DNA of 14,966 bases from Leptolyngbyaceae cyanobacterium RU_5_1 (GCA_012034055.1 JAAUSG010000128.1:1-14966), one strand, 5' to 3'. Shown: positions 1-14,966, counted from the stretch's first letter. Numbers and translations: made by a program. The notes: generated by a model not told the origin, from the sequence alone.

Positions 1-1232
1 ACCGGATTGCTCAGTCGGAGCAGCGCCTGGATGTGCCTGATGCCGCTGCGCACCAGTGTTTTCTGGACGACACCGCCATTGAAGAGTTGTTTGGCTGGGC
101 AGCGACAAAAGGGGCCGCCGTCATTTCTTGCAGTTGGGGCCCAGCGGCTGTCCGCTTTCCGCTGTCACTCCGCCAACGGAATGCGATCGTCCGCACGGCG
201 ACTGAAGGGCGCAACGGCAAGGGGTGTGTGATTGTGTTTGCGGCTGGGAATGCCAACCGTCCAATCAATAGCAGCATCAATGAGCAGGGCTGGCCGAATA
301 ATGTTTTGAAGGGAGCCACAGAATGGTTGAGCGGGTTCGCGGTTCATCCAGATGTGATGGCTGTCGCCGCTTCCACCAGTTTGAATCGGAAAGCGGCATA
401 CAGTAACTGGGGCAGGGAAATCTCGGTCTGTGCGCCCAGCAATAATGCGCCTCCAGGAATGGGGTTGCAGCAGGTTGGCTATGTGTTCACGCCGCCTGAA
501 GTGCGATCGGATTTACCCGGCTTAGGAATCGTCACCTCAGACCGGGTGGGTAAGGTGGGCTATGACCTCAGTGATTACACGACAGATTTTGGGGGGACAT
601 CGAGTGCTTGTCCTCTGGTGGCTGGAGTGGCTGCGCTGGTGTTGTCTGCTAACCCAGAGTTGCAGGCTGCTGAGGTGAGGCAAGTTTTGCAGCAAACGGC
701 CGACAAGATTGTTGATCCCAACCCTGATCCTCAATTTGGCTTCCGCAAGGGAACCTATGAAGCGGGTGGACGCTGTGATTGGTTTGGGTATGGAAAAGTG
801 AATGCATTTAAAGCCGTGCAGGCAGCGGTGCAACGAAGGGTAGCCGCGATCGCAGCCTCCCGCCAAATTCAGCTCCAAAACACCACCAGTCTGTCCATTC
901 CGGACGATGACTCGCAAGGCATCACCAGCACCATTCAAGTTTCTGAAACAGCCCCTGTGCGCAGTATTCAGATTACTGCGGAAATCGAGCACAGCTTCAT
1001 GAGCGATCTGGAGATTAGCCTGATCTCGCCTGCAAACCAGGTCGTGCTATTGCACGGGCGCACTCTAGGCCGGAGAACGTTATTCAAGGGAACCTACTCC
1101 CTGCAAACAACTCCGCTCCTGACAAGAGTCATTGATCAATCTGCCCAGGGACGTTGGCAGCTAAAGATCACAGACAACGCCCAAGGGGATACCGGTATTC
1201 TGAAGAGTTGGCAGTTGACATTGGGATTATAG
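1..1232 (+). CDS. S8 family (subtilisin/kexin-like) serine peptidase with C-terminal proprotein-convertase P-domain; 5' end lies outside the window
   Basis: The frame of ORF 33..1232 stays open back to base 3 (cgg att gct cag ...), so the gene is cut by the window edge. It has the AAGN oxyanion-hole motif and the catalytic-Ser motif GGTSSACPLVAG. The last ~110 aa (SDLEISLISPANQVVLLHGR...GRWQLKITDNAQGDTGILKSWQLTLGL) fit the P/Homo-B domain pattern. Confidence 0.9.
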   Translation, partial: RIAQSEQRLDVPDAAAHQCFLDDTAIEELFGWAATKGAAVISCSWGPAAVRFPLSLRQRNAIVRTATEGRNGKGCVIVFAAGNANRPINSSINEQGWPNNVLKGATEWLSGFAVHPDVMAVAASTSLNRKAAYSNWGREISVCAPSNNAPPGMGLQQVGYVFTPPEVRSDLPGLGIVTSDRVGKVGYDLSDYTTDFGGTSSACPLVAGVAALVLSANPELQAAEVRQVLQQTADKIVDPNPDPQFGFRKGTYEAGGRCDWFGYGKVNAFKAVQAAVQRRVAAIAASRQIQLQNTTSLSIPDDDSQGITSTIQVSETAPVRSIQITAEIEHSFMSDLEISLISPANQVVLLHGRTLGRRTLFKGTYSLQTTPLLTRVIDQSAQGRWQLKITDNAQGDTGILKSWQLTLGL

Positions 1233-1264
1233 TAATTCTCTGTTGAATACGATAGTCTCGGCGA

Positions 1265-1285
1265 GGGTGGGGAGTAGGGAGTGGG
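1265..1285. repeat. G-rich degenerate heptamer run GGGTGGGGAGTAGGGAGTGGG (four G3-4 tracts)
   Basis: Read directly. It lies between the convergent 3' ends of the S8 and transglycosylase genes and resembles the GAGTGGG array at 6866. Confidence 0.5.
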
Positions 1286-1304
1286 CTGATCGCAGACGTA
1301 AGGT

Positions 1305-3516
1305 TTACTGCACAGTTGGATATTGATTGGAGACCTGATCCAGCTTTTGAGCAATTTCTGGATTGTAAAGCCGCAGGTAATTCCAGTAATTCTCAAAGAC
1401 AGATTTGACGTACCCTCGGGTTTCGCTGTAGGGGATCGATTCGATAAACTGATCGGCATCGCCAACGCCTTTCTTGGCGACCCAATCGGCAACGGCACCA
1501 GGACCCGCATTGTAACTGGCAACGGCCAGCATCGAGTTACCGTCGTACTCTGTGTGGGTGTAATCCAGGTACCAGGTGCCCAGCTTGATATTGTCGTCTG
1601 GATCGGTCAGCTCAAACTCCTTCAGCTTAATTTTTGGCAATCCAGGTACCGGTATCTGGCATCACCTGCATCAAGCCCACAGCCCCCGCTGAGGATTTGA
1701 TCCCCGGCATGAAGCGGGATTCCTGACGAATCAATGCCGTTACCAGGAGCGGATTTAGCTGCCGCTCTTGCGACCAGGCTTCAATTGGCTCCAGATACGG
1801 GAACGGATAGAGTGCATACCAGTAGCCGAGCTGTTTTTTCAGTGCTCTGTATTGGGTCTGTTCTTCGGGTAATTCGCGCTCACTCAGGTGCGACACCATG
1901 AAAATGCCGTCCAGGTGATCGCCAACGCCCAACCGCATGACGCCATCCGTGAATTGCTCTGCCACACTGGGTTGCATCGGGTCACGAAACTCTGCCTGCC
2001 AGAGCGCCCAAGCGTCCCGGTCTTGCCCCAGTTGATGGAGTTCTTGCAGGGACTCAGAGCCGGTCGGTAGCGCCGGACGGGCAGCAGGGCGGGCAACCGG
2101 TGGCTTAAGCTGGCGAACACTGGAGAAGTCGCCGACATCCCACCCCAACATGGACGCCGATCGCCAGGCGTAAAAGGACTCTGGATAACGGGTCAGGACG
2201 GTTTCAAAGACTTGCTTAGCCTCATTGGGTTTGCCCAGTTGATTGGCCCATTTACCCAACCAGAAGGCGGCTTCGGGGGCAAATTCGCTGTCTGGGTTTT
2301 GGCTCAACAGGGGAGCGGCCCATTTCTGAGCGGTTTCAATATCTCCAGCTTCAGCACTCTTCTGGGCCATATCCCAACGCAATTCGGCGGCGGCATTGGA
2401 CTTGCCGTAGCGATTGAGCAGAATTTGTCGGGTTAGCGTGGCGGCTTGACCGCTATTCAGTCCATCTAACAGCCTGGATTTTTCCAAAAGCGCTTCTCCA
2501 GCGCGATCGGGGAACCGGCTAATGGCCTGATCCAGATAAGCGATCGCAGTTTTCGGCTCCACAATCCGCGACAACCGGATGAGGGCTAGCCCAGTTTCTG
2601 GGGCATCGGGAAACGTAGCCACCATGCGCTGATAGGCAGCCGTAGCTCCTGGTTTTTCGCCCAGTTGCAGCCCCCGTGCAGTCCGGTAAGCATTGCGGGG
2701 AGTCAGGGGTGCTTTTGCATAAGCTTCCCCGGCTTTGCCGTACACCTGCTTTTCCCAGTAGCCAAAGGCGATCGCTTCCCAGTCATCTGCCTTCAACTGA
2801 TTGGCGTATTTTTCTGCCAATTGGTCGAGTACGCCCATGTACTCTGGCAAATACAGTCCATGTTGCGCAATCAGCAAGAGCAGCTCAGGCTGATTCGGAT
2901 TTTGCTTCAGTCGCTGTTGAGCAATGTCCATCACCCGCGGATGGGCAGGAAACTGAGCGATCGCCTGATCCCAGTAGCGGGGATTGGTCTTACCCAATGC
3001 GTACAGGGCTTCCGCGGCGGCTGGGTCTTTGGGGTGGTGCTTGAGGATTGCCTGCCTGGTTGCCGTTGCCGTTGCGCTGTCGCCAACCAGGTCATAAGCC
3101 TGGGCCCGTTTCATCAAGACATGACTGGCCAGAACTGTGTAGGTTGACTCCAGTCCATCCAGTTGCTCCAGGGCTTTCTTGCCTTGCCCTTGCTGCAGCA
3201 GCTCTGTTGCCAGGAGATAGCGAGCACGGCTGCGATCGAGAGATTCCTTGCTTTTGGCGATCGCGGACAGCTTTTCCGCCCGCTTTTCAGGCGCTAAAGA
3301 CTTGATCAGGTTGATATCCTTGATTTGGACAGCACCAGCCTGTAGTTCTCCACCGGATTGTAAAAACTCGCTACCCTGCTGACGGCTGATCAGCGCTTTA
3401 GTCAAAGCGCTGCCCACCAACAATACCCCCAGGCTGACGCCAACTATTCGATAAACCCGTGCTCGTCGTTGCTGCATTGGTCTACTACCAGAACTAGAGA
3501 GTTTGAAAAGGCTCAC
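1305..3516 (-). pseudogene. Slt70-like soluble lytic murein transglycosylase, frame broken once (ORFs 1627..3516 and 1305..1640 are one gene)
   Basis: The 629-aa ORF has an N-terminal membrane anchor/signal (VGVSLGVLLVGSAL) and a long helical-repeat region. It ends inside the SLT catalytic domain (LIRQESRF...GAVGLMQVMPDTGTWIAKN*). The 111-aa ORF continues that domain (KLGTWYLDY...AVASYNAGPGAV...). The junction is an A5 run on the coding strand (T5 at 1631-1635). An alternative start is the ATG at 3477. Confidence 0.85.
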
Positions 3517-3787
3517 TTGACCAAAGGTCTGGTCAGGTCATAGAATTTTTCGCACTATTTTTTTGCACTATGTTAACCACAAAACCCTTTCGCGACTGTA
3601 GCATTTTGCAAAAAGGTGGACGAGGACTGATCACCTCCGGGTCTACATCCCGTTAATTTTTTGAGCAATACTGGAATTAAACCTTATCCACGTTCAGACC
3701 TGGAGTTTTTCTGAAGGGAAAGCTACAGATTCCGAGCTGAACGTGGTTTAGTTGCTCGGTGAGACTAAGTAAACAGGGGTAGAAAAG

Positions 3788-3808
3788 GGTCATTGGTCAC
3801 TGGTTATT
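3788..3808. repeat. STRR2-like heptamer array GGTCATT GGTCACT GGTTATT
   Basis: Three tandem 7-mers, a cyclic permutation of the cyanobacterial STRR2 unit TTGGTCA, about 100 bp upstream of pepA. Confidence 0.6.
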
Positions 3809-3911
3809 GGGGATGCAACACACGACGGACGACCGATGGCACATGATTGTTCCCCTGAGATGTTTGGTTCTACCGCTTGCTCAAAAAACAGGAACGTTGA
3901 GGATATCCCGA

Positions 3912-5393
3912 ATGGATTTGCGAGTAACAGATACGTCATACCTGGAGTGGTCTGGTGATGCGTTGGCGGTGGGTTTGTTTGAAGATCAAATAGAGCTGAG
4001 TGGCGATTTAGCGGTATTAGATGAGCAATTGGCTGGTACCGTCAAAGAGTTGATTGCCGAGACAGAGTTCAAAGGTAAAGAAGGCAATAGTGTTGCCACA
4101 CGAGTTGGCAGCGGCACGAAGATTCGCAAAATCGTTTTGGTGGGATTGGGCAAGGTAGACGACTTTAAGCTGGAGCGGCTGCGGCGAGCTGGAGCGGCGA
4201 GTGCGCGATCGGCAAAGAAGGAGAAATGCAAAACATTGGGAATCACTCTGCCGATATTGGGTGGGGATGCGGCCGCCAGTGCTCAAGCGATCGCCGAAGG
4301 GGTTGAACTTGCCCTTTATCAAGACACTCGCTTCAAATCTGAACCGGATGACAAAGGCCCCAGGGTAGAACAGGTTGATTTATTGGGATTGGCTGGACAG
4401 GACGCCGCCATCACTCGTGCGCGTCAGATTTGTTCTGGAGTGATTTTAGCGCGGGAGTTGGTTGCCGCCCCTGCAAACATCGTTACACCCATCACCCTGG
4501 CAGAAACGGCCAGCGCGATCGCCCAGGAATACGGACTGGAGTTAGAAATTCTGGAGCGAGAAGACTGCGAGAAATTGGGCATGGGCGCATATCTGGGTGT
4601 GGCCCAGGCGTCTGACTTGCCGCCCAAATTCATCCACCTCACCTACAAGCCGGAAGGTACTCCCCGCCGTAAGCTAGCGATTATCGGTAAAGGACTGACC
4701 TTTGATTCCGGTGGGCTAAACATCAAAGTCTCTGGCAGCGGCATCGAAATGATGAAAACCGACATGGGTGGAGCCGGGGCAACCCTGGGAGCGGCAAAAG
4801 CGATCGCCCAACTCAAACCCGATGTGGAAGTTCATTTCATCAGCGCCGCCACGGAAAACATGATCAGCGGTCACGCCATGCACCCCGGCGACATCCTCAC
4901 GGCGTCTAACGGCAAGACGATCGAAATCAACAACACCGATGCCGAAGGACGCCTCACCCTGGCTGATGCCCTCGTGTTTGCTGAGAAGCTGGGAGTGGAA
5001 GCGATCGTCGATCTGGCCACCCTCACTGGAGCCTGTGTGATTGCCCTGGGTGACGACATTGCTGGACTCTGGAGTCCCAGTGACGATCTCGCCAATCAAC
5101 TCCTGACAGCCTCCGAAACCTCTGGCGAGAAACTGTGGCGCATGCCGATGGAAGAAAAGTACTTTGAAGGCATGAAATCTGTCGTCGCTGACATGAAGAA
5201 TACCGGTCCCCGCCCTGGTGGAGCGATCACTGCCGCCCTGTTCCTGAAGCAGTTTATCAAAAACACTGCCTGGGCACACCTGGATGTCGCAGGTCCAGTC
5301 TGGGCAGACAAGGAAAACAGCTACAACAGCGTTGGTGCGACTGGTTTTGGGGTACGAATCCTGGTGAATTGGGTGTTGGGCACTGGTCTCTAA
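3912..5393 (+). CDS. pepA: leucyl aminopeptidase (M17 family)
   Basis: Has the M17 signature [14 protein letters not shown] and the metal/active-site block [14 protein letters not shown]. Start placed at ATG 3912 (MDLRVTD...), preceded by GAGGA 8 nt upstream. The 35 extra N-terminal codons of ORF 3807 run through the heptamer repeat and look non-coding. Confidence 0.93.
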
Positions 5394-5571
5394 AGGGGTA
5401 ATCAACGGGAGGGCTATTCATGGAACGTCCCTACGGACACGAACAATAGCTTTGAAACACAACCCTAACTCTTTGGTTGCAAAAATTTAATGATGAGAGC
5501 ATGACATAATGATTGGCGTCCGATGATGAATTCGCGATCGCAGTTAGACGATCAGGTTGAGGTACAAAAAC

Positions 5572-6864
5572 GTGAAGGTTTTGGTTGTCGGGAGCGGCGG
5601 TCGGGAACATGCACTGGCTTGGAAGCTATTGCAGTCCAATAAAGTACAGCAAGTCACTTGCGTACCTGGAAATGGCGGCACAGCGTCTATGTCGCGTTGC
5701 CAAAATTTGGCGCTCAGCGCTCAAGATTTTGAGGGCATTGGGCGGTTTGCCCTGGTGAATGGAGTTTCGCTGATTGTAGTAGGTCCAGAAGTTCCGCTAG
5801 CGGCAGGAATCACTGATTATCTACGACAGCAAGGGTTAACTGTATTTGGTCCAACCCGATTGGGGGCACAACTTGAAGCCAGCAAGGTATGGGCAAAAGC
5901 ACTCATGCAGGAGGCAAAAATTCCCACAGCCCAGTCAGTCATATTTACTCAAGCAGAGCCAGCCCTGGATTATGTTCGCCAACACGGTGTGCCTATTGTT
6001 GTTAAAGCAGACGGATTAGCCGCTGGCAAGGGCGTGACGGTCGCAACAACGGTTGAGGAAGCAGAAGCTGCCATTACGGATGCCTTCAACGGAAAATTTG
6101 GCGAAGCAGGCTATCGGCTTGTGCTTGAGGAATACCTGACCGGGCAGGAGGTCTCGATTCTGGCGCTGACCGACGGTATCACCATTCGCCCTTTAATCCC
6201 AGCTCAAGATCACAAGCGCATTGGAGAAGGTGACACGGGAGCCAACACAGGGGGTATGGGAGCCTATGCTCCAGCCCCAATTGTCACTCCTGAGTTGATA
6301 GAGCGGATTCAGCAGGAAATTTTGGACCCTGCGATCGCCACCCTGAGCAAACGCAAGATCGACTACCGGGGCGTTCTCTATGCCGGATTAATCATTACTC
6401 CCGATGGGGATCCCAGGGTAATTGAATTCAATTGCCGCTTTGGGGATCCGGAGACCCAGGTTGTGTTGCCGCTGCTCGACACGCCACTGCATGAATTACT
6501 GCTGGCCTGTACCCAGAAACGACTTGCAGACCTGCCTGCGATCGCCTGGAAACCCGGTGCAGCCGCTTGTGTCGTTATAGCAGCGGCTGGCTATCCTGAC
6601 GCTTATGCCAAGGGAAAGATGATCACTGGAATTGATCAGGCAGAATCAGAAGGAGCCGTTGTGTTTCATGCTGGAACTCAACGCAAATCGCAAACGTTGG
6701 TCTCCGATGGTGGACGAGTGTTGGGGGTCACTGCCCTGGGTGAGACCCTGGATGCCGCGATCGCTAACGCCTATACTGCCACCCAATCTATTCAGTTTGA
6801 GGGCATGTACTATCGCCGTGACATCGGCTACCAAGTGCAAACTGCCAGGTCGGCTGCTGGTTAG
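5572..6864 (+). CDS. purD: phosphoribosylamine--glycine ligase
   Basis: Has the N-terminal PurD motif VKVLVVGSGGREHALAWKL, an ATP-grasp core (VVKADGLAAGKGV) and the C-terminal block VIEFNCRFGDPETQ. GTG 5572 has a GAGG ~9 nt upstream. The ORF track's TTG 5557 is a possible alternative start. Confidence 0.93.
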   Translation: MKVLVVGSGGREHALAWKLLQSNKVQQVTCVPGNGGTASMSRCQNLALSAQDFEGIGRFALVNGVSLIVVGPEVPLAAGITDYLRQQGLTVFGPTRLGAQLEASKVWAKALMQEAKIPTAQSVIFTQAEPALDYVRQHGVPIVVKADGLAAGKGVTVATTVEEAEAAITDAFNGKFGEAGYRLVLEEYLTGQEVSILALTDGITIRPLIPAQDHKRIGEGDTGANTGGMGAYAPAPIVTPELIERIQQEILDPAIATLSKRKIDYRGVLYAGLIITPDGDPRVIEFNCRFGDPETQVVLPLLDTPLHELLLACTQKRLADLPAIAWKPGAAACVVIAAAGYPDAYAKGKMITGIDQAESEGAVVFHAGTQRKSQTLVSDGGRVLGVTALGETLDAAIANAYTATQSIQFEGMYYRRDIGYQVQTARSAAG

Positions 6865-6865
6865 C

Positions 6866-6911
6866 GAGTGGGGAGTGGGGAGGAGACAGGAGTGAGTAGA
6901 CAGGAGTCTAC
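6866..6911. repeat. Degenerate heptamer array (GAGTGGG GAGTGGG GAGGAGA CAGGAGT GAGTAGA CAGGAGT) with embedded 6-bp hairpin
   Basis: Six 7-nt units are read directly between the convergent purD and DUF3110 3' ends. GTAGAC-agga-GTCTAC (6896..6911) could act as a weak bidirectional terminator, but there is no U-tract. Confidence 0.55.
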
Positions 6912-6931
6912 TTAGTCACTATCCACCTCCA

Positions 6932-7330
6932 CTACAACAGCCCCTCCAATCGCCGCCGAATTTGCTCCAAGTCTGACTCTGCGATCGCCGGTTCGTCTCG
7001 CAATTTCTGGGCTTCCAATTGCCAATCGGTTTCTTCCACGTTTCGTTCTGGAGGAACGAGTAGGAGGCGTTCGGCGTCGGATTGAGGCACGAATCCTTGG
7101 GGAATGAGCTGGCAATAGTATCCAGCGCTCTGACAAAATTCCTCAATTTCTTGATCATCAATGGGTTCGACGGATGGGGCTGGAAAGTCCTGTGCCTCTA
7201 GAAGAAGGGCGTAACGAGTTGCGTCGTCTTCTTCCTCAAACATCAGCACGAGGTCGCGATCGCCAATTCGTAAGGTATGCAGCCCCTCGTTGTCTGTTCC
7301 AACATTAAATAGCAGCACAAATACACGCAT
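6932..7330 (-). CDS. DUF3110-family conserved cyanobacterial protein
   Basis: MRVFVLLFNVGTDNEGLHTL...LVLMFEEEDDATRYALLLEAQDFP...IEEFCQSAGY matches my recollection of the DUF3110 N-terminal pattern. GGAG lies 4 nt upstream of the ATG. The overlapping ORFs 6912..7136 and 6919..7161 are alternative frames of the same stretch. Confidence 0.7.
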   Translation of the reverse strand: MRVFVLLFNVGTDNEGLHTLRIGDRDLVLMFEEEDDATRYALLLEAQDFPAPSVEPIDDQEIEEFCQSAGYYCQLIPQGFVPQSDAERLLLVPPERNVEETDWQLEAQKLRDEPAIAESDLEQIRRRLEGLL

Positions 7331-7444
7331 GACTCCAGAGTGTTCTTATCGTTTTTTCAATCTTAGAGCCTATCGGACAGCTCACAGACTCAAGCAACGA
7401 TTCAAAATCTTACCACCCGCAAATTTTCTGTTGATTGGCGATCG

Positions 7445-7513
7445 CGGTAGGGGCGGGTTTAGCCACAGACTCTGCTTGTAGCCTCAGATTGACAACAAAA
7501 CCCGCCCCTACCG
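7445..7513. repeat. 16-bp perfect inverted repeat CGGTAGGGGCGGGTTT / AAACCCGCCCCTACCG with 37-nt spacer
   Basis: Read directly (7445-7460 and 7498-7513). It sits in the divergent promoter region between the DUF3110 gene (-) and the DUF255 gene (+). Confidence 0.85.
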
Positions 7514-7544
7514 TCAACGGGAAATTTACGCCGGGAAAGTTTCC

Positions 7545-7572
7545 ATTTTTAATTTTGCATTTTGCATTTTGA
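7545..7572. repeat. Heptamer array ATTTTTA ATTTTGC ATTTTGC ATTTTGA
   Basis: Four tandem 7-mers, 21 bp upstream of the DUF255 start. Confidence 0.7.
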
Positions 7573-7592
7573 ATCGTTAATTGTCTTTTTCT

Positions 7593-9663
7593 ATGCCCAA
7601 TCGCCTTGCCCAATCCAAAAGCCTCTACCTGCGCAAACACGCTGAAAATCCCATCGACTGGTGGCCATGGTGTGATGAAGCGCTGGACACCGCACGACGC
7701 GAGAACAAGCCCATTTTTCTTTCGGTCGGTTACTCCAGTTGTCACTGGTGTACGGTGATGGAGGGGGAAGCCTTCTCGGATGGTGCGATCGCGGACTACA
7801 TGAATGCCAACTTCGTGCCGATCAAAGTGGATCGGGAGGAGCGTCCTGATCTGGACAGCATCTATATGCAAGCGGTTCAGATGATGATTGGGCAAGGGGG
7901 GTGGCCCTTGAACGTGTTTCTCTCCCCCGATGATCTGGTGCCATTTTATGGTGGGACGTATTTTCCATAGAACCTCGCTATGGGCGACCGGGCTTCTTCC
8001 AGGTGTTGCAGGCAGTGCGCCGCTACTACGATGTTGAAAAAACGAAGCTGCAGTCGATTAAGTCGGAAGTGTTAAGCAATCTCCAGGGGACGGCTGTTTT
8101 GCCACCCGCGCAAGAATTAAGCCGTGAACTGCTGCAGCAAGGACTGGAATACAACACCGGCGTAGTTTCCTCCAAGTCTCTTGGTTCCAGCTTTCCGATG
8201 ATTCCCTATGCAGAGGTGGCGTTGCGATCGCGGCGATTCACCGTCGAATCCCGTTACAACGCCAAAGAAGTCAGCACCCAACGGGGACTGGATTTAGCAC
8301 TGGGTGGCATCTTTGATCACGTTGGCGGTGGTTTCCATCGTTACACCGTGGATCCGACCTGGACTGTGCCCCACTTTGAGAAGATGCTCTACGACAACGG
8401 ACAGATTGTGGAGTATTTAGCAAACCTGTGGGCGGCCGGAGCACAGGAACCCGCGTTTGAACGCGCGATCGCCCTTACCGTTCAATGGCTGCAGCGCGAA
8501 ATGACTGCCCCCGAAGGCTACTTCTACGCTGCCCAGGATGCCGACAGTTTTGTCGATCCCAGTGAAGCAGAACCCGAAGAAGGCGCTTTCTACGTTTGGG
8601 ACTATCCAGATCTAGAAGCATTACTCACTTCAGAGGAGTTGGCAGAACTGCAAGAACAGTTCACGGTAACTGAAAATGGCAATTTTGAGGGCTACAACGT
8701 TCTGCAACGACACCATCCCGGCAAGTTGAGCGACTCCTTAGAGACCGCACTGTCCAAGTTGTTTCAGGCACGCTACGGCTCCTCTGCAGCCGACCTGTCC
8801 GTCTTTCCCCCTGCCCGCAACAATCAAGCCGCAAAAACCACCCCCTGGGCAGGTCGCATTCCGCCCGTCACCGATACCAAAATGATTGTTGCCTGGAACA
8901 GCCTGATGATTTCTGGGTTAGCACGGGCATCAACTGTATTTCACCAGCCAGATTATCTGGAATTAGCCATCAAGGCCGCCGACTTTATCGGCACCCATCA
9001 GTGGATCAATGGACGCTTCCATCGCGTTAACTACGACGGTCAGGCAGATGTGTTAGCGCAGTCCGAAGATTATGCATTGTTCATCAAAGCGCTATTGGAT
9101 TTGCATCAGGCTATGCAGGGGTCAGGAACCGAATCTGAAACCTGGAACCTGAAACCTGAAACCTATCTCGATCGCGCCCTCAAAACCCAATCAGAATTCG
9201 ACGAATTCCTCTGGAGCATTGAGATGGGTGGTTATTACAACACCGATGCCAGCCGCGATTTGCTGGTTCGGGAGCGCAGCTATGCCGACAACGCCACACC
9301 CGCCGCCAACGGAGTAGCGATCGCCAATTTAGTGCGATTGGCCTTGCTAACAGAGGACCTCAGCTATCTGGACAAGGCAGAGCAAACGCTGCAGGCGTTT
9401 GGGAGTGTGATGGAGCGATCGCCCCAATCGTGCCCAGCCTCTTCTCCGCACTCGACTGGTTCCACAACCACACCCTGATCCGCACCACTACCGACCCGCT
9501 GGCAACCCTTGCACCCCAATACCTACCCACCACTGTTTACACTTGGGAGCCTAATTTACCAGAAGGGGCTGTCGGATTCGTTTGCCAGGGTTTGAGCTGC
9601 CAAGAACTCGCCCGCAGCCCAGAACAGTTGCTAGAGCAGGTCGCAAATATACGATTCTCTTGA
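7593..9663 (+). pseudogene. Thioredoxin-domain protein (DUF255 / YyaL / SPATA20-like), frame broken twice (ORFs 7581..7970, 8003..9478, 9430..9663)
   Basis: The N-terminus [29 protein letters not shown]...[20 protein letters not shown] is the DUF255 thioredoxin-like domain. The first ORF ends ...GGTYFP*, and the next frame reads EPRYGRPGFFQVLQAV from 7970, so one base is missing between 7967 and 7970. The second break is at 9431-9437: ...RSPQSCP in one frame and SLFSALDWFHNHTLIRTT in the next. Confidence 0.85.
9135..9162. repeat. Intragenic heptamer array CTGAAAC CTGGAAC CTGAAAC CTGAAAC
   Basis: Four tandem 7-mers inside the DUF255 reading frame, translated as ...SETWNLKPETY... Confidence 0.8.
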
Positions 9664-10315: not shown

Positions 10316-10530
10316 AGTAGCGTTGCTGCCAATCCACGAACCGCGATCAACCCTCATTCCAGCAAGTGCGATCGCGGCGAGTGCGCGATCGCAACTTACC
10401 CATAGGAGCTTAAGACGCCTAACCCATCCTTTTAGATCACACAGTGCTGCTCCACAACCTAGTTTCAACTTCAACGGTTGCATCTGACTTAAGCAAGCGG
10501 GGTGACTGGGAGTGCGTCATCCGTTTTGGA

Positions 10531-10833
10531 TGCTGGATAACTCCGGAGTCCAGGGTGTTATCCGTCAAAAATGCTGGATAACACCCCCTATTTCCAGACT
10601 TAACCTGCAAATCTGCCGGATAACATCTCAAAAGTCGGACTTAACCCGCAATTTTTTGGTTTAAATCCTGAAAACTTGGGGATTATCCAGCAAATGTGCA
10701 ATACAACCGTGGAAATCGAGGATGTTATCCAGCAGATTTGCCACTGATTACCTAGTTATGCGGCTTCAAGTTATTTGTGAAGGCAATACATCCAGGTTGT
10801 CTAGCTGAGTTCACAGCCTCAGGATGTTATCAG
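10531..10833. repeat. Phased array of TGCYGGATAAC(A) motifs: three direct copies, then two to three inverted copies
   Basis: Direct copies: 10531-10541, 10572-10583, 10614-10625 (spacing 41 and 42 bp). Inverted copies: 10683-10692 and 10723-10734 (spacing 42 bp). Weaker copies: 10557-10564 and 10823-10833. There is a 20-bp inverted repeat with one mismatch (10608-10627 vs 10721-10740) and a 14-bp direct repeat GACTTAACCYGCAA (10597-10610 and 10638-10651). Confidence 0.8.
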
Positions 10834-10870
10834 TCAGTAACAGCAGGTAAAGTTGATAAGGAGCTAAGTA

Positions 10871-11680
10871 TTGAGCTTTATGCAACCAATTCAAGCCGAT
10901 CAACTCATACCGCTCTCGATTTCAGACAGATTTCAATTGATTGAAGAGTATGCAAAATTGGTTACTGTACCTGCTGAATTGAACTCCGATCTACATCGTG
11001 CTTACCAGATTGCAGCCGTACTCACACCAGCCTTACCTAACTTTATCCAATACCAGATTCAAGTAGATATTTCTCACGGATCTATTTTTGAGGGGGATCG
11101 CCAATCTACAGCGATTTCAAATGAGTGTGAACAGTTTGCAAATCGCTTTATCGACACCATCCCATCATTAGTCAGATCTCCAGCAGAAATGGAAGTCAAC
11201 CCACGTAATCTTTACGAACTGTGCGGAGCCGCAGTCTTTGTTGAAAGCAATTCAATCTCCAGACAGTTAAGTAGACCGATGGGAGATCTTTGGGAGACAA
11301 TCGCTAACATTAGTCCCTATGCGATCAGCCCAGAAAAAGACTTTGGGATCAAAATTACGGGTATTGATTCAGTTCTTCTGCGTCAAGGAAAAGGTGCCCC
11401 TGTATTTGTACAAATCAAAACACAGCGGAATACCCTCACAGGAAGTCAAGCACCGAGATCAAGAAGTGAGCTAGAATTTCATCAGAATCGACTTTTCGCA
11501 GCCGCTTTTTGTACAGGAGGTAATTGGACGTTCTCAAGCACAAGTATTCGCCGCGCTTGTGGTGCTGAATTTTGGTCTATGGTAGGACTTGATTATGAGT
11601 TACTGAAGTTTCATGTAAAGCAGATGATACTCAAAATTCAAGCCGCTTACATAGACTTTCAACAGAAGACTCCCTTGTGA
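10871..11680 (+). CDS. hypothetical protein; candidate Type II restriction endonuclease partner of the adjacent C5 methyltransferase
   Basis: AAGGAG lies 7 nt upstream of TTG 10871. The gene is convergent with the MTase, with stops 19 bp apart, and shares its AT-rich composition. It has a PD-(D/E)XK-like arrangement: ...LWETIAN...ITGIDSVLL-x12-VFVQIKTQRNT (D...QxK). I see no similarity to a named enzyme. Confidence 0.6.
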   Translation: MSFMQPIQADQLIPLSISDRFQLIEEYAKLVTVPAELNSDLHRAYQIAAVLTPALPNFIQYQIQVDISHGSIFEGDRQSTAISNECEQFANRFIDTIPSLVRSPAEMEVNPRNLYELCGAAVFVESNSISRQLSRPMGDLWETIANISPYAISPEKDFGIKITGIDSVLLRQGKGAPVFVQIKTQRNTLTGSQAPRSRSELEFHQNRLFAAAFCTGGNWTFSSTSIRRACGAEFWSMVGLDYELLKFHVKQMILKIQAAYIDFQQKTPL

Positions 11681-11699
11681 CAGGAATAAAAAAATTGCT

Positions 11700-13130
11700 T
11701 TATATCAGAGATAGGGACAGTTGTTTTATGGAACTAGAATGGGAGTTTTCTAAAACATCTATTTCCCAACTAATATCATTAGTCTTTAGATATCGAGAGT
11801 AGGGAAAATCCTTAAAAACAATTGGCTCCACCCCGTTCAAGTGGTTTACTAACGTCCTACCAATTGCCCGACCAAGAGAACAAGGGACGGCATTGCCAAC
11901 CTGTCGATATTGATCAAGCAGACTACCCTCAATAATCCAATCATCAGGGAATTCTTGTATACGTTTATACTCCTGAATACTAAGAGGTCGATCCTCTTCT
12001 GGATGTGCTAAATCTGTTGCAGGCATTGCTGGGTGAGTAACGAGTGTAGGAGAAGGTTTATCCCAAGCTAATCTCCGATAAAAACCTGTTTTTCCACCTC
12101 CGGCATGATATGACGCTCCTAATGCCTCTTGTTGCAAGTTCACCGGTAGATCACGCCAGTATTGCCCAGGCTTGAGAAGTCGATAATATTTGAGGCGCTT
12201 ATCTGGAAATTTAACAAAATTGTGTCGATCTTTCGGCAGTCCTGTCAGTGCATCTCTGAGGGTCTTCCACTTCGGTAGTTCATATAAGCCTTTCTCAGAA
12301 TGAGTAGGCGTGAGGTAGGGGAGCCTTTCTCCATCTCGACTACAAATAATAACGACTCTTTCTCGTTGCTGAGGTGAGCCAAAATTAGCTGAATTGTATA
12401 GGTTGAAAGACACACCATAACCTGCATCTTTCAACTTACGAATGATGTTGAGAAGTGCTCCTCCTCTTTGTTCTTCCTGAGAAAGTGGTGGATATTGACT
12501 TCCTCTCATTTCATGGGGTCTGTGCTTTAACGGAGCAGATAATAACCCTCGGACGTTTTCGATAATTGCAAATTTAGGTCTGAGTTCAATAATCAAATCG
12601 ACAAACATTAGAAATACATTGCCCCGCTCATCATTGAAACCTTGTCTCTTACCAGCACTACTAAAAGCTTGGCATGGTGGACCACCAACCATTACATCAA
12701 TATCTTCTTGAGGTGTTAGTCCTGCTTTTTCTCTGATCTTGCTAGCTGAATAGTCTCTGATATCGCCAATTAGAGCGATATCAGGTTTATTCGTTTCGAT
12801 TGTCCTTCGTGCTGCTTTATCTACTTCGCAAGCAAGGATTACTTCAATTCCTTCTTTTTCCAGCCCCAAATCAAGTCCCATGCAGCCAGAAAAGAAGCTT
12901 AACGCCTTCAAAGTAGGTTTGCTAGAAGACCGTCTCTCATGATCTGGAACAACAGAATCTGGTTCATTTTCTTTATAGCGATATTCATTAGCCGATTTTG
13001 ATGCGATCACCCATCTATTACTGACCAATTCTCCGCTGAGTTCACCACTCCTAAGCAGCTTGCGAACATATTGTTCTGAATAACCAAGCATTTCAGAGGT
13101 TTCTTTTACAGAAAAATATCCTGTGGACAT
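11700..13130 (-). CDS. DNA (cytosine-5)-methyltransferase with N-terminal excisionase/MerR-type helix-turn-helix
   Basis: C5-MTase motifs are present in order: I FFSGCMGLDLG, II ACEVD, IV GGPPCQAFS, VI ENVRGLLS, VIII QQRERVVII, IX RRLAWDKPSPTLVT, X QVGNAVPCSLGRAIG. The N-terminal ~50 aa (FSVKETSEMLGYSEQYVRKLLRSGELSGELVSNRWVI) fit the HTH_17/excisionase pattern. Start placed at ATG 13130; the 21 extra codons of the ORF-track start run through the promoter. Confidence 0.92.
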   Translation of the reverse strand: MSTGYFSVKETSEMLGYSEQYVRKLLRSGELSGELVSNRWVIASKSANEYRYKENEPDSVVPDHERRSSSKPTLKALSFFSGCMGLDLGLEKEGIEVILACEVDKAARRTIETNKPDIALIGDIRDYSASKIREKAGLTPQEDIDVMVGGPPCQAFSSAGKRQGFNDERGNVFLMFVDLIIELRPKFAIIENVRGLLSAPLKHRPHEMRGSQYPPLSQEEQRGGALLNIIRKLKDAGYGVSFNLYNSANFGSPQQRERVVIICSRDGERLPYLTPTHSEKGLYELPKWKTLRDALTGLPKDRHNFVKFPDKRLKYYRLLKPGQYWRDLPVNLQQEALGASYHAGGGKTGFYRRLAWDKPSPTLVTHPAMPATDLAHPEEDRPLSIQEYKRIQEFPDDWIIEGSLLDQYRQVGNAVPCSLGRAIGRTLVNHLNGVEPIVFKDFPYSRYLKTNDISWEIDVLENSHSSSIKQLSLSLI

Positions 13131-13164
13131 GAGTTTCGCCTGCGAAACTAGAATTAGGTACCCT

Positions 13165-13193
13165 ACCCTAAGACAAGTACAGTTGTTTTGCAA
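13165..13193 (-). promoter_or_regulatory. Candidate sigma70-type promoter of the methyltransferase
   Basis: The minus strand reads TTGCAA (13193-13188), then 17 nt, then TAGGGT (13170-13165), about 35 nt upstream of ATG 13130. This is pattern match only. Confidence 0.3.
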
Positions 13194-13226
13194 GTCCTAT
13201 AAGCTTCTGAGTCCTATAAGCTTCTG
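13193..13226. repeat. Perfect 17-bp tandem duplication AGTCCTATAAGCTTCTG x2
   Basis: Read directly (13193-13209 and 13210-13226). Each copy contains an AAGCTT palindrome, and the repeat abuts the putative -35. Confidence 0.95.
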
Positions 13227-13265
13227 TGTTAGTGCTATAGTTTCCCAAATGCCGACAGCCGTATA

Positions 13266-13879
13266 ATCGGGTAACCGGGGGATTTTCTCCCTCAGTCCCC
13301 ACAGCACCCCACGTGCGGATCCGCATGGGGCGCTTCCTCAAAGAGGTTTAGACAATTCAGTTCCGAAGCACTGATGTCCAGGGTTGGCTACACAATTAAG
13401 CGCCGACCATTCAGCTCCCCCGTCCAGGTTCATCGCCCCGTCGAGCTTTGCGGCTCCTCCCTGCTCTTTGAAGTTCAGCCCTTCACCTTGTTTCATCCTT
13501 ACGATGAGCGTTTGGCTACTCTGGCCTCTGCTGACTTCTGCTCAATCATGACTGGCGTTGCCACCCTTCACGCTGCCTGTATTCCCCTAGGGTTCTGTGG
13601 GGTGTCGATTCGTTTCCAAATCGCCCTCAGTCCGACTCCCATAGGTTCACAGACCGCCTCTTGAGCAGATCTCCCCAGATCACCGTGAACTGTCGCTGCA
13701 CAACCGCGTCATTTACTGTGTCCCTTGAACCAAAAGGCTTTGTGATGTTGTGCTCACTTGCCACAGGGATCTCAGCCTGCTATGACATTTCTGTCCGTCG
13801 GCTCGCAGCTTTGCCGCCAGCTTCCTGCAGACCCTTCCTCGCGGAAACGCCCTTGCCTTAAGCTAGTCGTTATCGTCAC
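13266..13879 (-). mobile_element. ORF-less group II intron-like ribozyme (3' end well defined, 5' end uncertain)
   Basis: The minus-strand RNA at 13334->13303 reads AGCGCCCCA-UGCG-GAUC-CGCA-CG-UGGGGUGCU, which is domain V architecture with an AGC triad and a 2-nt bulge. The RNA at 13300->13269 folds as a hairpin with one bulged A (opposite t13272), 7 nt before a terminal ...GAU at 13266; this fits domain VI with a branch-point A and a 3' AY. There is no minus-strand ORF of 60 aa or more in the region. There is no canonical GUGYG; the nearest match is GUGAC at 13879. Confidence 0.6.
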
Positions 13880-14213
13880 TCGATTTTTCGATCATTTGGA
13901 CATGGCGTGAATATCCCGATAGTTGAAATGTAGTTGTTTGCATATGAACTTACGGCTGCTGCTGCCGGAAGCGTTCAGGCCGTGCGCGCCGACCTCCGCT
14001 GATGTGAGCGCCGCCTGCCGGCCCTATTGGAGGCAAAATGCCGCTGCGTATCACAATTTTGTGACAGCGCAGATACGATCATGCCGCCCGACCGCAACGA
14101 CGCGTGCGGACGCATCGCCATGCTGGTCGCGATCCTTTCGCCGTCGGCCGTTTCGTGCATAGTCTGGCGCAAGCGCACTATCACCACGGAATCGAGGAAG
14201 ACGGGCCAGCGAA

Positions 14214-14686
14214 ATGTGGAACCTGTTCAACCAGCGCCGCGAATTGGATGCGGAGGTCTTCGCGAAGCTGCGTCCGGGCGACCTGTTCGGCAGCGAACAG
14301 CAGGCGACGCGGCGGCCGGAGTATCTCGTACGGTATCTCGTGCTGGCGAATGCGTCGGTGCTCACATTCTTCGCCGTCGTGCTGTCCCGCGTGGGCGCCG
14401 AGTTGCCGGCATACCCGGACATCTATGCCGCCGTGTGGCTGACCGGCGTCGGTATCGCGATCGCGGCGGGCGCGTGGACGCTGATGAAGCTCTCGCGCCG
14501 GGGTCGAAGCCCAGGCGCTCGCTCACGGCACCGGCGGCATGTGCGTCCGAGCTGTCGCCGGCGGTGCGAACCCTCATGAAGAAGGCGGCGGTCAAGAAGC
14601 TCCTCGCCATCCGCATCCTGATCGTCTCGGCGTTGTCCGGCTTTATCGGCTTCTATCTCGGCCTCAAGGGCCTGTTCCTGCTTTAG
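14214..14686 (+). pseudogene. GC-rich hypothetical membrane protein; coding signal hops frames twice
   Basis: G/C at the third codon position is strong in the frame of 14214 up to ~14500 (MWNLFNQRRELDAEVF...VLTFFAVVLSRVG...GVGIAIAAGAWTLMKLS). It then moves to the frame of 14503 (VEAQALAHGTGG...). From ~14573 it moves to a third frame (LMKKAAVKKLLAIRILIVSALSGFIGFYLGLKGLFLL*). No family recognised. Confidence 0.3.
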
Positions 14687-14690
14687 CCCG

Positions 14691-14966
14691 TCATTCGCGG
14701 AGCCAGCGCCGGCAGGCCTCGATCAAGGCTGCAGGATCGCCGTCTTCGGCGAGGTCGAGGGCGCGAGGCCGCCCACGCAAGACCGTCGCGCCCGACTGGG
14801 CAGCGATGTCGCTGACCGCCTCGAAGGACGGCCCGTCGTAGCGAATGATCTCTAGCCCCTGGCGGAGCGCGGCCAGCGCGTGCCCGGCATGGCGCCGCAG
14901 TCGAGCACGCCCTCGATCGCCGCGTCGGGATGATCTTCGGCGCCATGCGGAGGACGGCCTGGAACC
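14691..14966 (-). pseudogene. 3' part of a GC-rich gene of unknown function, runs off the window; frame hops
   Basis: The minus frame ending in TGA (14693-14691) reads ...HALAALRQGLEIIRYDGPSFEAVSDIAAQSGATVLRGRPRALDLAEDGDPAALIEACRRWLRE* with high GC3. Further upstream the GC3 signal moves to two other frames (PDAAIEGVLDCGAMPG, then FQAVLRMAPKII). The ORF-track entry 14683..14946 is a different, Arg-rich frame. Confidence 0.3.

Follow-up and report, generated by a model that had tools for sequence, protein, structure and literature searches.

IIC-attC introns, the attC-targeting sublineage of the bacterial class C group II introns, are inserted into the bottom strand of attC by the rule TTGT/T, which provides intron-binding sites 1 and 3 (IBS1/IBS3; PMC7923331). 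Among bacteria, introns without an open reading frame (ORF) are uncommon and are mostly found together with related introns, from which a protein may be supplied in trans, and a CGC catalytic triad has been noted for "some introns" (PMC4424553). The locus described here lies in a window of 14,966 nucleotides (nt) from Leptolyngbyaceae cyanobacterium RU_5_1 (GCA_012034055.1 JAAUSG010000128.1:1-14966), which is one entire 14,968-nt contig of a metagenome-assembled genome (MAG). On its minus strand, 13901->13266 is an ORF-less group II intron that corresponds to positions ~61-700 of a family whose members are ~700 nt long, and the element is an ORF-less member of class C and of its IIC-attC sublineage. 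The explanation that we consider probable is that this is a non-autonomous IIC-attC intron copy whose truncation on the contig was most likely caused by an assembly chimera, and if so the copy in the real genome is probably full length.

A scan of the whole window against Rfam returned exactly three matches above the curated (gathering) thresholds, all on the minus strand and collinear, and a permissive rescan of 13100-14200 returned no further matches. Together with the domains that they delimit, the features of the intron are as follows.

13848-13682, minus strand: domain I core (RF02001 group-II-D1D4-3, 125.3 bits, E 6e-26, full model)
13748..13751, minus strand: predicted exon-binding site 1 (EBS1) ACAA, in the hairpin loop GCACAACA of domain I, complementary to the 5′-exon end UUGU
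13572-13478, minus strand: domain II/III region (RF01998 group-II-D1D4-1, 57.6 bits, full model)
13478->13336, minus strand: domain IV stub of 143 nt, which occupies the place of the reverse transcriptase (RT)/maturase ORF
13335-13266, minus strand: domains V and VI (RF00029 Intron_gpII, 49.7 bits, cutoff 40)
13334/13333->13304/13303, minus strand: domain V, with a 9-bp lower helix including a U·G pair, an AC bulge, a short upper helix and a GAUC loop
13300->13269, minus strand: domain VI, whose bulged A, the branch point, is at 13272 (7 nt before the 3′ end)
after 13266, minus strand: 3′ splice site, with the intron end …CCCGAU followed by U and the AY terminus present

The intron is 82-87% identical to the full-length, 700-705-nt ORF-less copies of Kovacikia, Phormidesmis, Stenomitos and Coleofasciculaceae. 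Its retained 636 nt have not decayed relative to intact copies, as the Rfam scores are equal (with RF02001, 125.3 bits vs. 124-129 bits for intact relatives) and EBS1, domain V and domain VI are intact. Two ORFs overlap the region in antisense, one of 96 aa with no Pfam match and one of 66 aa with only a sub-threshold, chance-level Pfam match (E 0.067, 12.5 bits, cutoff 25). An earlier interpretation of this DNA, hereafter the sequence-only reading, had proposed a group II intron-like RNA on the minus strand without an RT ORF, and both parts of that proposal hold, given three Rfam models above the gathering score, a domain IV of 143 nt and overlapping ORFs without a significant Pfam match. The domain V, domain VI, bulged A at 13272 and 3′ end at 13266 that it had placed by eye also coincide with the RF00029 alignment. 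The catalytic triad, which had been read as AGC, is CGC at 13332-13330 in the register of the Rfam alignment.

Domains V and VI were aligned from 22 distinct copies, and pairs were counted on the specified structure. Standard pairs fill 96.6% of the pair cells, compared with 44-56% when the partner is slid, both sides change in 10 of the 24 pairs, and none of 500 shuffles reached the observed covariation score. The 12 pairs of domain V are 99.2% paired, three of them with both-side changes, and the 12 pairs of domain VI are 93.9% paired, seven of them with both-side changes. The CGC triad, kept in 21-22 of the 22 relatives, is essentially invariant, and so is the U·G pair. The helices of domains V and VI, which the sequence-only reading had predicted, are real and conserved. 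At 32 nt, domain V of the window copy is 2 nt below the Rfam consensus length, and its loop is GAUC; these features are present as had been described, but they are not peculiar to this copy. All 22 relatives, among them the integron intron of a Providencia IMP-4 plasmid, have a short domain V with a GANC loop and the CGC triad, which makes the short domain V a family trait and not a defect of the window copy. A new structural class of group II intron had been offered as one option, on account of a domain V 2 nt under the Rfam consensus with a non-GNRA GAUC loop and a window without a GUGYG 5′ end. This option is extremely improbable, as the same domain V occurs in all 22 relatives, the 5′ end of the relatives is a normal GU(GU)ACG, and the target site and the type of protein match the described IIC-attC lineage of class C.

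The relatives of the intron were found in two ways. A distant-mode plasmid search found a full-length match with 84% identity on a 1.2-Mb plasmid of the cyanobacterium Kovacikia minuta, where five places match, a full-length ORF-less match in pPBPR1 of Photobacterium profundum, and hundreds of partial matches, restricted to domains I-III, to ORF-containing introns on enterobacterial plasmids. One of the enterobacterial matches sits in a class 1 integron beside catB3/qacEΔ1, and nucleotide identity of domains I-III to the introns of enterobacterial integron plasmids is 67-70%. A motif scan with one genome per species identified 50 loci, mostly in Leptolyngbya-like cyanobacteria (Nodosilinea, Stenomitos, Phormidesmis, Kovacikia-like and Altericista) and also in Photobacterium and Colwellia, with several copies in Photobacterium sagamiensis.

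The placement in class C and in the IIC-attC sublineage follows from the CGC triad and the ACAA of EBS1 and, in relatives, from insertion into attC-like hairpins at TTGT|T and an RT/maturase without an endonuclease domain. The 5′ exons of 23 cyanobacterial copies and the uninterrupted sites form a unit of ~82 nt, YTAAC-G…CAGCGGCGGC…CCGTCCGCTGCA…TTGT, that folds as a bulged hairpin with compensatory changes in 14 of 15 predicted pairs. A covariance model for this attC-like site, built from the sites of 23 relatives including three uninterrupted sites of the Nodosilinea locus L005, detected 28 sites in the loci of the relatives at 35-91 bits, with 35-83 bits for non-training sites and 67-85 bits for the three L005 training sites. 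The loci of the relatives are cassette arrays. The insertion point in the relatives is NTGT|T, mostly TTGT, in agreement with the published TTGT/T rule (PMC7923331). The EBS1 loop is conserved in all copies, and its ACAA is complementary to the TTGT in which most 5′ exons end. The exon of copy L040 ends in TGGT and its loop reads ACCA, a compensatory change which indicates that an ORF-less copy selects its target by base pairing. The protein of the ORF-containing relative L016 consists of RVT_1 and GIIM only, with no endonuclease domain, and matches TIGR04416. Of the target rule, the window holds only EBS1 (ACAA) and the 3′-exon T/TATAC, as the 5′ exon is off the contig, and no cassette array is visible on the contig. 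Arrays of attC-like hairpins (~82 nt, YTAACG…CAGCGGCGGC…CCGTCCGCTGCA…TTGTTRRRY) were also observed in Leptolyngbya-like cyanobacteria, among others at 1067-1149, 3422-3503 and 5359-5439 of L005, at 4181-4262 of L002 and at 4488-4573 and 5273-5359 of L031, and their sequences suggest integron or CALIN (cluster of attC sites lacking integron-integrase) cassette arrays.

Three groups can be distinguished among fourteen ORF-less copies of 700-721 nt that have no RT gene.

Group A: the window, Kovacikia, Phormidesmis, Coleofasciculaceae, Stenomitos and a contig rich in highly iterated palindrome 1 (HIP1) and mis-binned as "Rhizobium"
Group B: Nodosilinea/Leptolyngbya
Group C: Photobacterium

Each of these copies occupies a different attC site or flank, and the domain IV stub measures 143-147 nt in all 14. 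The stub of the window copy retains GGAGGAG, the Shine-Dalgarno sequence, together with the N-terminal ~20 codons of the protein, and a TGA directly precedes domain V. The frame-2 translation of the stub, LNFKEQGGA…GGAEW (…QGGA…M…GGAEW), matches the N-terminus of the intron-encoded protein. ORF-containing relatives were found in other cyanobacteria (L010, L016, L018 and L032), and the window intron aligns with nt 1-~560 and with the final ~90 nt of L016 and L010. In the 3′ ~70 nt of the stub, similarity to the parental ORFs is not detectable, and we rejected an origin of the stub by plain internal deletion from the parental ORF, since the match to the ORF start is confined to its first part. 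Homology is plain between the stubs of groups A and B and partial for that of group C, and the fold predicted from an alignment of 12 stubs has compensatory changes in 18 of 43 pairs. The ORF-less form has the appearance of a non-autonomous lineage that has been maintained, rather than of the product of repeated fresh deletions. The ribozymes of group B were observed to be 86-89% identical to those of the ORF-containing L016 and L010 but only 73-75% identical to those of group A, with which group B shares the domain IV stub; this pattern of similarity suggests recombination between ORF-less and ORF-containing forms.

No published description of an ORF-less IIC-attC form was found in a search that excluded the survey of ORF-less introns by Simon et al. 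(2008), in which the copies of Photobacterium profundum may already be catalogued. We give an even chance to the broader proposal that these copies are an undescribed, long-lived lineage of ~700-nt non-autonomous IIC-attC introns, which would have a structured domain IV of 143-147 nt whose 3′ half is unrelated to the parental ORF, would have spread through the attC arrays of filamentous cyanobacteria and marine Photobacterium with retargeting by EBS1/IBS1, and would parasitise the RT of autonomous relatives and possibly recombine with them.

Several individual loci show further arrangements. Positions 44-2203 of L024, a Phormidesmis MAG, are a twintron in which an ORF-less IIC-attC copy is split between domains V and VI by an inner group II intron with a 537-aa RVT_N+RVT_1+GIIM protein and its own domains V and VI (RF00029, 48.9 bits). 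Two domain V/VI ends are found within ~1.5 kb in each of the Photobacterium loci L003 (2052-2128 and 3540-3616) and L008 (978-1054 and 2145-2221), and these pairs are closely spaced ORF-less copies in neighbouring sites. L050 contains an internally deleted copy of 414 nt. L040 and L026 (MAG 'Rhizobium sp. Q54') have a GC content of 45-47% and 8-12 HIP1 (GCGATCGC) sites per 8 kb; these contigs are cyanobacterial and apparently mis-binned.

Based on these results, we propose that the ~700-nt RNA would fold into a six-domain ribozyme with the CGC triad in domain V and the bulged A in domain VI. Targets would be recognized through the bottom-strand hairpin of an upstream attC, four base pairs between EBS1 (ACAA) and IBS1 (UUGU) and a single IBS3 U. 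Help in splicing and retrohoming would be supplied in trans by the RT/maturase of ORF-containing relatives, in line with the expectation of the sequence-only reading that an ORF-less RNA would need a protein from elsewhere. In other group II introns the Shine-Dalgarno/start-codon region of domain IV is the primary binding site of the protein, and this region, a probable protein-binding part, is kept in the conserved, structured 143-nt stub. We infer that the window copy is mobilised in trans and active.

A 5′ end was sought in comparison with the family. Full ORF-less copies of ~700 nt start with GU|GUACGCCCAGC, and all relatives with upstream sequence have the 5′ end GU|GUACGCCC, a normal GU(GU)ACG; the TTGT/T rule places the splice site inside GT|GTACG. 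In relatives with enough upstream sequence, the start reads GTGTACGCCCAGCATGGGC-GTGAACTNATG-GGGGTGAAAGTCCCC-TGTCGGAGAACCAACG and lies ~105-113 nt upstream of the motif GGCAAGGGC, and the 5′ region of the family, …CGUUGGUUCUCCGACAGGGGACUUUCACCCC… / GTGTACGCCCAGC…, is preceded by an attC hairpin with a TTGT end. The sequence-only reading had set the 5′ limit at a GUGAC at 13879. This string is internal, being part of the family-conserved CGAGUGACG; homology runs on to 13901, and the true 5′ end of the family lies ~60 nt further. BLAST homology to all relatives begins at 13901 and never earlier, and identity to the Kovacikia copy, which is 75-100% per 20-nt bin over 13900-13266, collapses upstream. 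With a covariance model of the first 131 positions of the family, built without the window, the window scored 48.8 bits, compared with 132-161 bits for intact copies, including non-training copies. The similarity of 13901-13990 to nt 1-60 of the family is no better than that of shuffled sequence (local alignment, p=0.44), a search of the rest of the window that allowed up to 3 mismatches did not find the missing 5′ motifs, and GUGYG is absent from the window. The model score, the chance-level alignment and the absence of the motifs together indicate that ~60 nt with the 5′ splice site are absent from the window. The same alignment and motif results led us to reject a 5′ end that is degenerate rather than missing. 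We ascribe the absence of the 5′ end to the contig rather than to the family.

The DNA that replaces the 5′ end differs from the rest of the contig, as the following features indicate.

1-9500: GC 54%, 20 HIP1 (GCGATCGC) sites
13950-14966: GC 67%, 1 HIP1 (GCGATCGC) site
13902..14966: foreign block, 67% GC, comprising an intergenic region and two small, frameshifted genes from the housekeeping locus of a non-cyanobacterium, outside the intron
13880..13901, minus-strand reading: junction string GTCCAAATGATCGAAAAATCGA, 22 nt, the overlap of the intron (13901->13266) and foreign (14966->13880) homologies

Positions 13880-14966 are 91.9% identical to a Logan contig with 64% GC (L059), and the terminal block shares 84% identity with L055, an ENA contig with 65% GC, where the locus order is LysR–157-aa–85-aa–GAPDH–transketolase–DUF4164, with EF-P, ThiE and DeoC on the other side. 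Beyond the junction, the foreign organisms continue with their own intergenic DNA and then LysR, and have no intron. In the block, frameshifts distribute the 157-aa gene over 3 frames and the 85-aa gene over 2; one of the frameshifted genes is deposited as a cyanobacterial hypothetical protein, NJP10933.1. A plasmid search with the GC-rich block gave no match, and neither did an exact-protein look-up of two window ORFs. Native cyanobacterial DNA, suggested by the HIP1 site at 14457, was rejected for the block on the basis of its 84-92% identity to non-cyanobacterial contigs with 64-65% GC, and this lone site is forced by an IAIA peptide that is conserved in the homologues. Read natively, the junction is CCAAATGATCGAAAAAATCGA in L059 and GTCCAAATGATCGAAAAGATCCGA in the Kovacikia intron, and a string of at least 21 nt is native to both. 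As judged from these sequences, 13880..13901 is a probable chimeric join.

Two unrelated genomes joined near the end of a metagenomic contig, at a common string of 21 nt or more, are a typical sign of a de Bruijn-graph chimera. In the window the join is ~1.09 kb from the contig end, and sister MAGs of the same series consist of SPAdes NODE contigs with 2-10x coverage. An independent Logan contig (SRR11470445) is 100% identical to 10678-13857 and stops inside the intron, and its break falls in a 35-nt stretch that is identical among family copies, which implies that the assembly graph branches there and hints at other family copies in the SRR11470445 sample. We propose that the contig was most likely joined to the DNA of another bacterium via the 22-nt common string, with loss of the first ~60 nt and of the attC 5′ exon.

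The same arrangement could also have arisen in the cyanobacterium. Illegitimate recombination at the 22-nt microhomology with horizontally acquired DNA would then have deleted the 5′ splice site, the first hairpins of domain I and the attC exon, leaving a dead, unspliceable remnant. Such a real 5′ truncation appears unlikely, although it deserves serious consideration: the deposited contig shows precisely this arrangement, ~5 frameshifting indels in the foreign genes relative to their homologues, next to intact cyanobacterial genes, have the look of decaying non-functional DNA, and 5′-truncated IIC-attC fragments are known from cassette arrays (PMC7923331). It accords poorly with a foreign piece that is the intergenic region of a core housekeeping locus, is only ~1.09 kb long and sits at the extreme end of a MAG contig, with a join in at least 21 nt of sequence that both parents possess natively, with an independent identical assembly that breaks inside the intron and so indicates a branched graph at that place, and with 636 retained nt that are undecayed. 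Of the two, an in-silico chimera is clearly the more probable. The 5′-truncated copy suggested by the sequence-only reading is an apt description of the contig, and it is best explained by the switch of the contig into GC-rich DNA and not by intron biology.

On its 3′ side the intron is followed by a short exon and a restriction-modification (R-M) module, in which a methyltransferase (MTase) is fused to a helix-turn-helix (HTH) domain.

13213..13265, minus strand: 3′ exon, which begins with TATACGG, resembles the remainder of an attC R′-core and runs into the R-M module leader
10755-13212: mobile type II R-M module, with the HTH-fused C5 MTase and the 269-aa ORF
11700..13130, minus strand: HTH_17 and C5 DNA methyltransferase (Pfam, NCBIfam)
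10871-11680, plus strand: 269-aa ORF, convergent with the MTase gene, which matched no family and probably encodes the restriction enzyme

At 86-87% identity, the module recurs in L060 and L061, two metagenome contigs from JGI, in unrelated contexts and with no intron beside it. The homology of L060 starts exactly at 13265, the base after the intron 3′ end, with TATACGRC…GTCGGCATTTGG, and the equivalent place in L060 reads TATACGACCATCGGCATTTGG, without the intron. This starting point independently confirms the 3′ boundary and identifies the intron as an insertion beside a mobile R-M module. Every copy among the relatives ends with …CCCGAT followed by T, and their 3′ exons begin with TAGAC/TAGGC/TATAA/TATGC. 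The end of the module carries a GCATAAC core resembling the start of the attC sites of the relatives.

The location of the intron directly upstream of, and co-oriented with, the C5-methyltransferase gene is as the sequence-only reading had given it. This arrangement would suit an intron RNA that has been co-opted as a structured 5′ leader or regulator of the MTase or the R-M module, e.g., as an insulator or a Pout-like promoter donor, as would the reports that IIC-attC introns impede read-through transcription and carry internal promoters (PMC3001079). We regard co-option as very improbable. The module has its own promoter-like element, TTGCAA-N17-TAnnnT, and a leader, both of which are conserved in L060 and L061 where the intron is absent, Pout, as published, is directed antisense and outward from the intron 5′ end, away from the MTase, and a promoter scan of 13000-14300 was empty. 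The intron-less R-M copies, the promoter-like element of the module itself and the lack of an attC-like site in the window indicate that the adjacency to the MTase is incidental and not functional.

Two repeats were observed within or next to the module. On the minus strand, 17 nt are repeated exactly in tandem at 13192-13225 (CAGAAGCTTATAGGACT x2), directly upstream of TTGCAA-N17-TAGGGT; the 17-nt sequence is single-copy in L060 and L061, and its duplication may be an operator for the N-terminal HTH of the MTase. A dense cluster at 10500-10760 contains at least 6 units of TGYTGGATAAC / GTTATCCAGCA, a perfect 10-bp hairpin, GGTGTTATCC-N12-GGATAACACC, and a 21-nt inverted pair (10607-10627 / 10721-10741), and its units resemble DnaA boxes (TTATCCAGC). 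The interpretation of this GGATAAC/GTTATCC cluster (10.5-10.76 kb) as attC sites is unsupported by the attC-like covariance model.

A number of observations weigh against the explanation that we favour, a non-autonomous IIC-attC copy truncated by an assembly chimera. The sublineage label rests on the target site, the triad and the domain content and not on a phylogeny with reference IIC-attC proteins, and the attC-like covariance model detected no site in the whole window (best 7.8 bits, E≈3). The intron and the MTase gene beside it point the same way, whereas IIC-attC introns mostly run opposite to the cassette genes, an orientation that is usual for them but not strictly defining. An RT-encoding relative was not demonstrated in the same genome, of which one MAG contig was covered. 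The chimera is deduced from homology and not demonstrated by reads or coverage; neither junction sequence turned up independently in two scans of metagenome contigs for exact patterns; and the frameshifts in both genes of the foreign block, next to 13 kb of cyanobacterial DNA with intact genes, would fit a decaying integrated fragment as well.

With the favoured explanation, the intron that seemed to have a strange domain V and "no 5′ end" becomes an ordinary member of a known lineage on a probably chimeric contig. For the annotation of the RU_5_1 MAG, caution is needed with the last ~1.09 kb, as its two "genes" (NJP10933-like) are not cyanobacterial. The more novel lead is the widespread ORF-less attC-targeting lineage with a conserved, structured domain IV in the attC arrays of cyanobacteria and Photobacterium. 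Should its mobilisation occur in trans, this lineage would offer a natural setting in which to study a maturase/RT that serves non-coding partner introns and the effects of introns on cassette arrays.

Compared with known systems, the element is most similar to the IIC-attC introns of integrons (S.ma.I2, E.c.I7 and Kl.pn.I1/I3 types), a likeness that is drawn from described features and not from direct comparison with the named reference sequences. The CGC triad is common to both, the relatives of the window element share the bottom-strand insertion into an attC-like hairpin at TTGT|T, and the ORF-containing relatives encode the same combination of RT and maturase without endonuclease. Unlike the IIC-attC introns, the window element has no intron-encoded protein, and its copy is co-oriented with the neighbouring gene on a contig with no attC site; the hosts also differ from those of the integron introns, being filamentous cyanobacteria with chromosomal or megaplasmid attC arrays. 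In the logic of its organization, though not in family, the element is analogous to MITE (miniature inverted-repeat transposable element)-like non-autonomous elements, which likewise keep the parts needed in cis (here the ribozyme, the target loop and a probable protein-binding stub) and lose the enzyme gene, but it is an RNA-based retroelement. It also resembles the ORF-less bacterial introns that are served in trans, such as those of the thermophilic cyanobacterium cited in PMC4424553, in that a domain IV stub replaces the ORF and in that, among its relatives, ORF-containing kin occur in the same taxa and multiple copies occur per genome. Unlike those examples, the ORF-less form described here is an old and widespread lineage, with three groups in two phyla and a conserved, structured domain IV of constant length.

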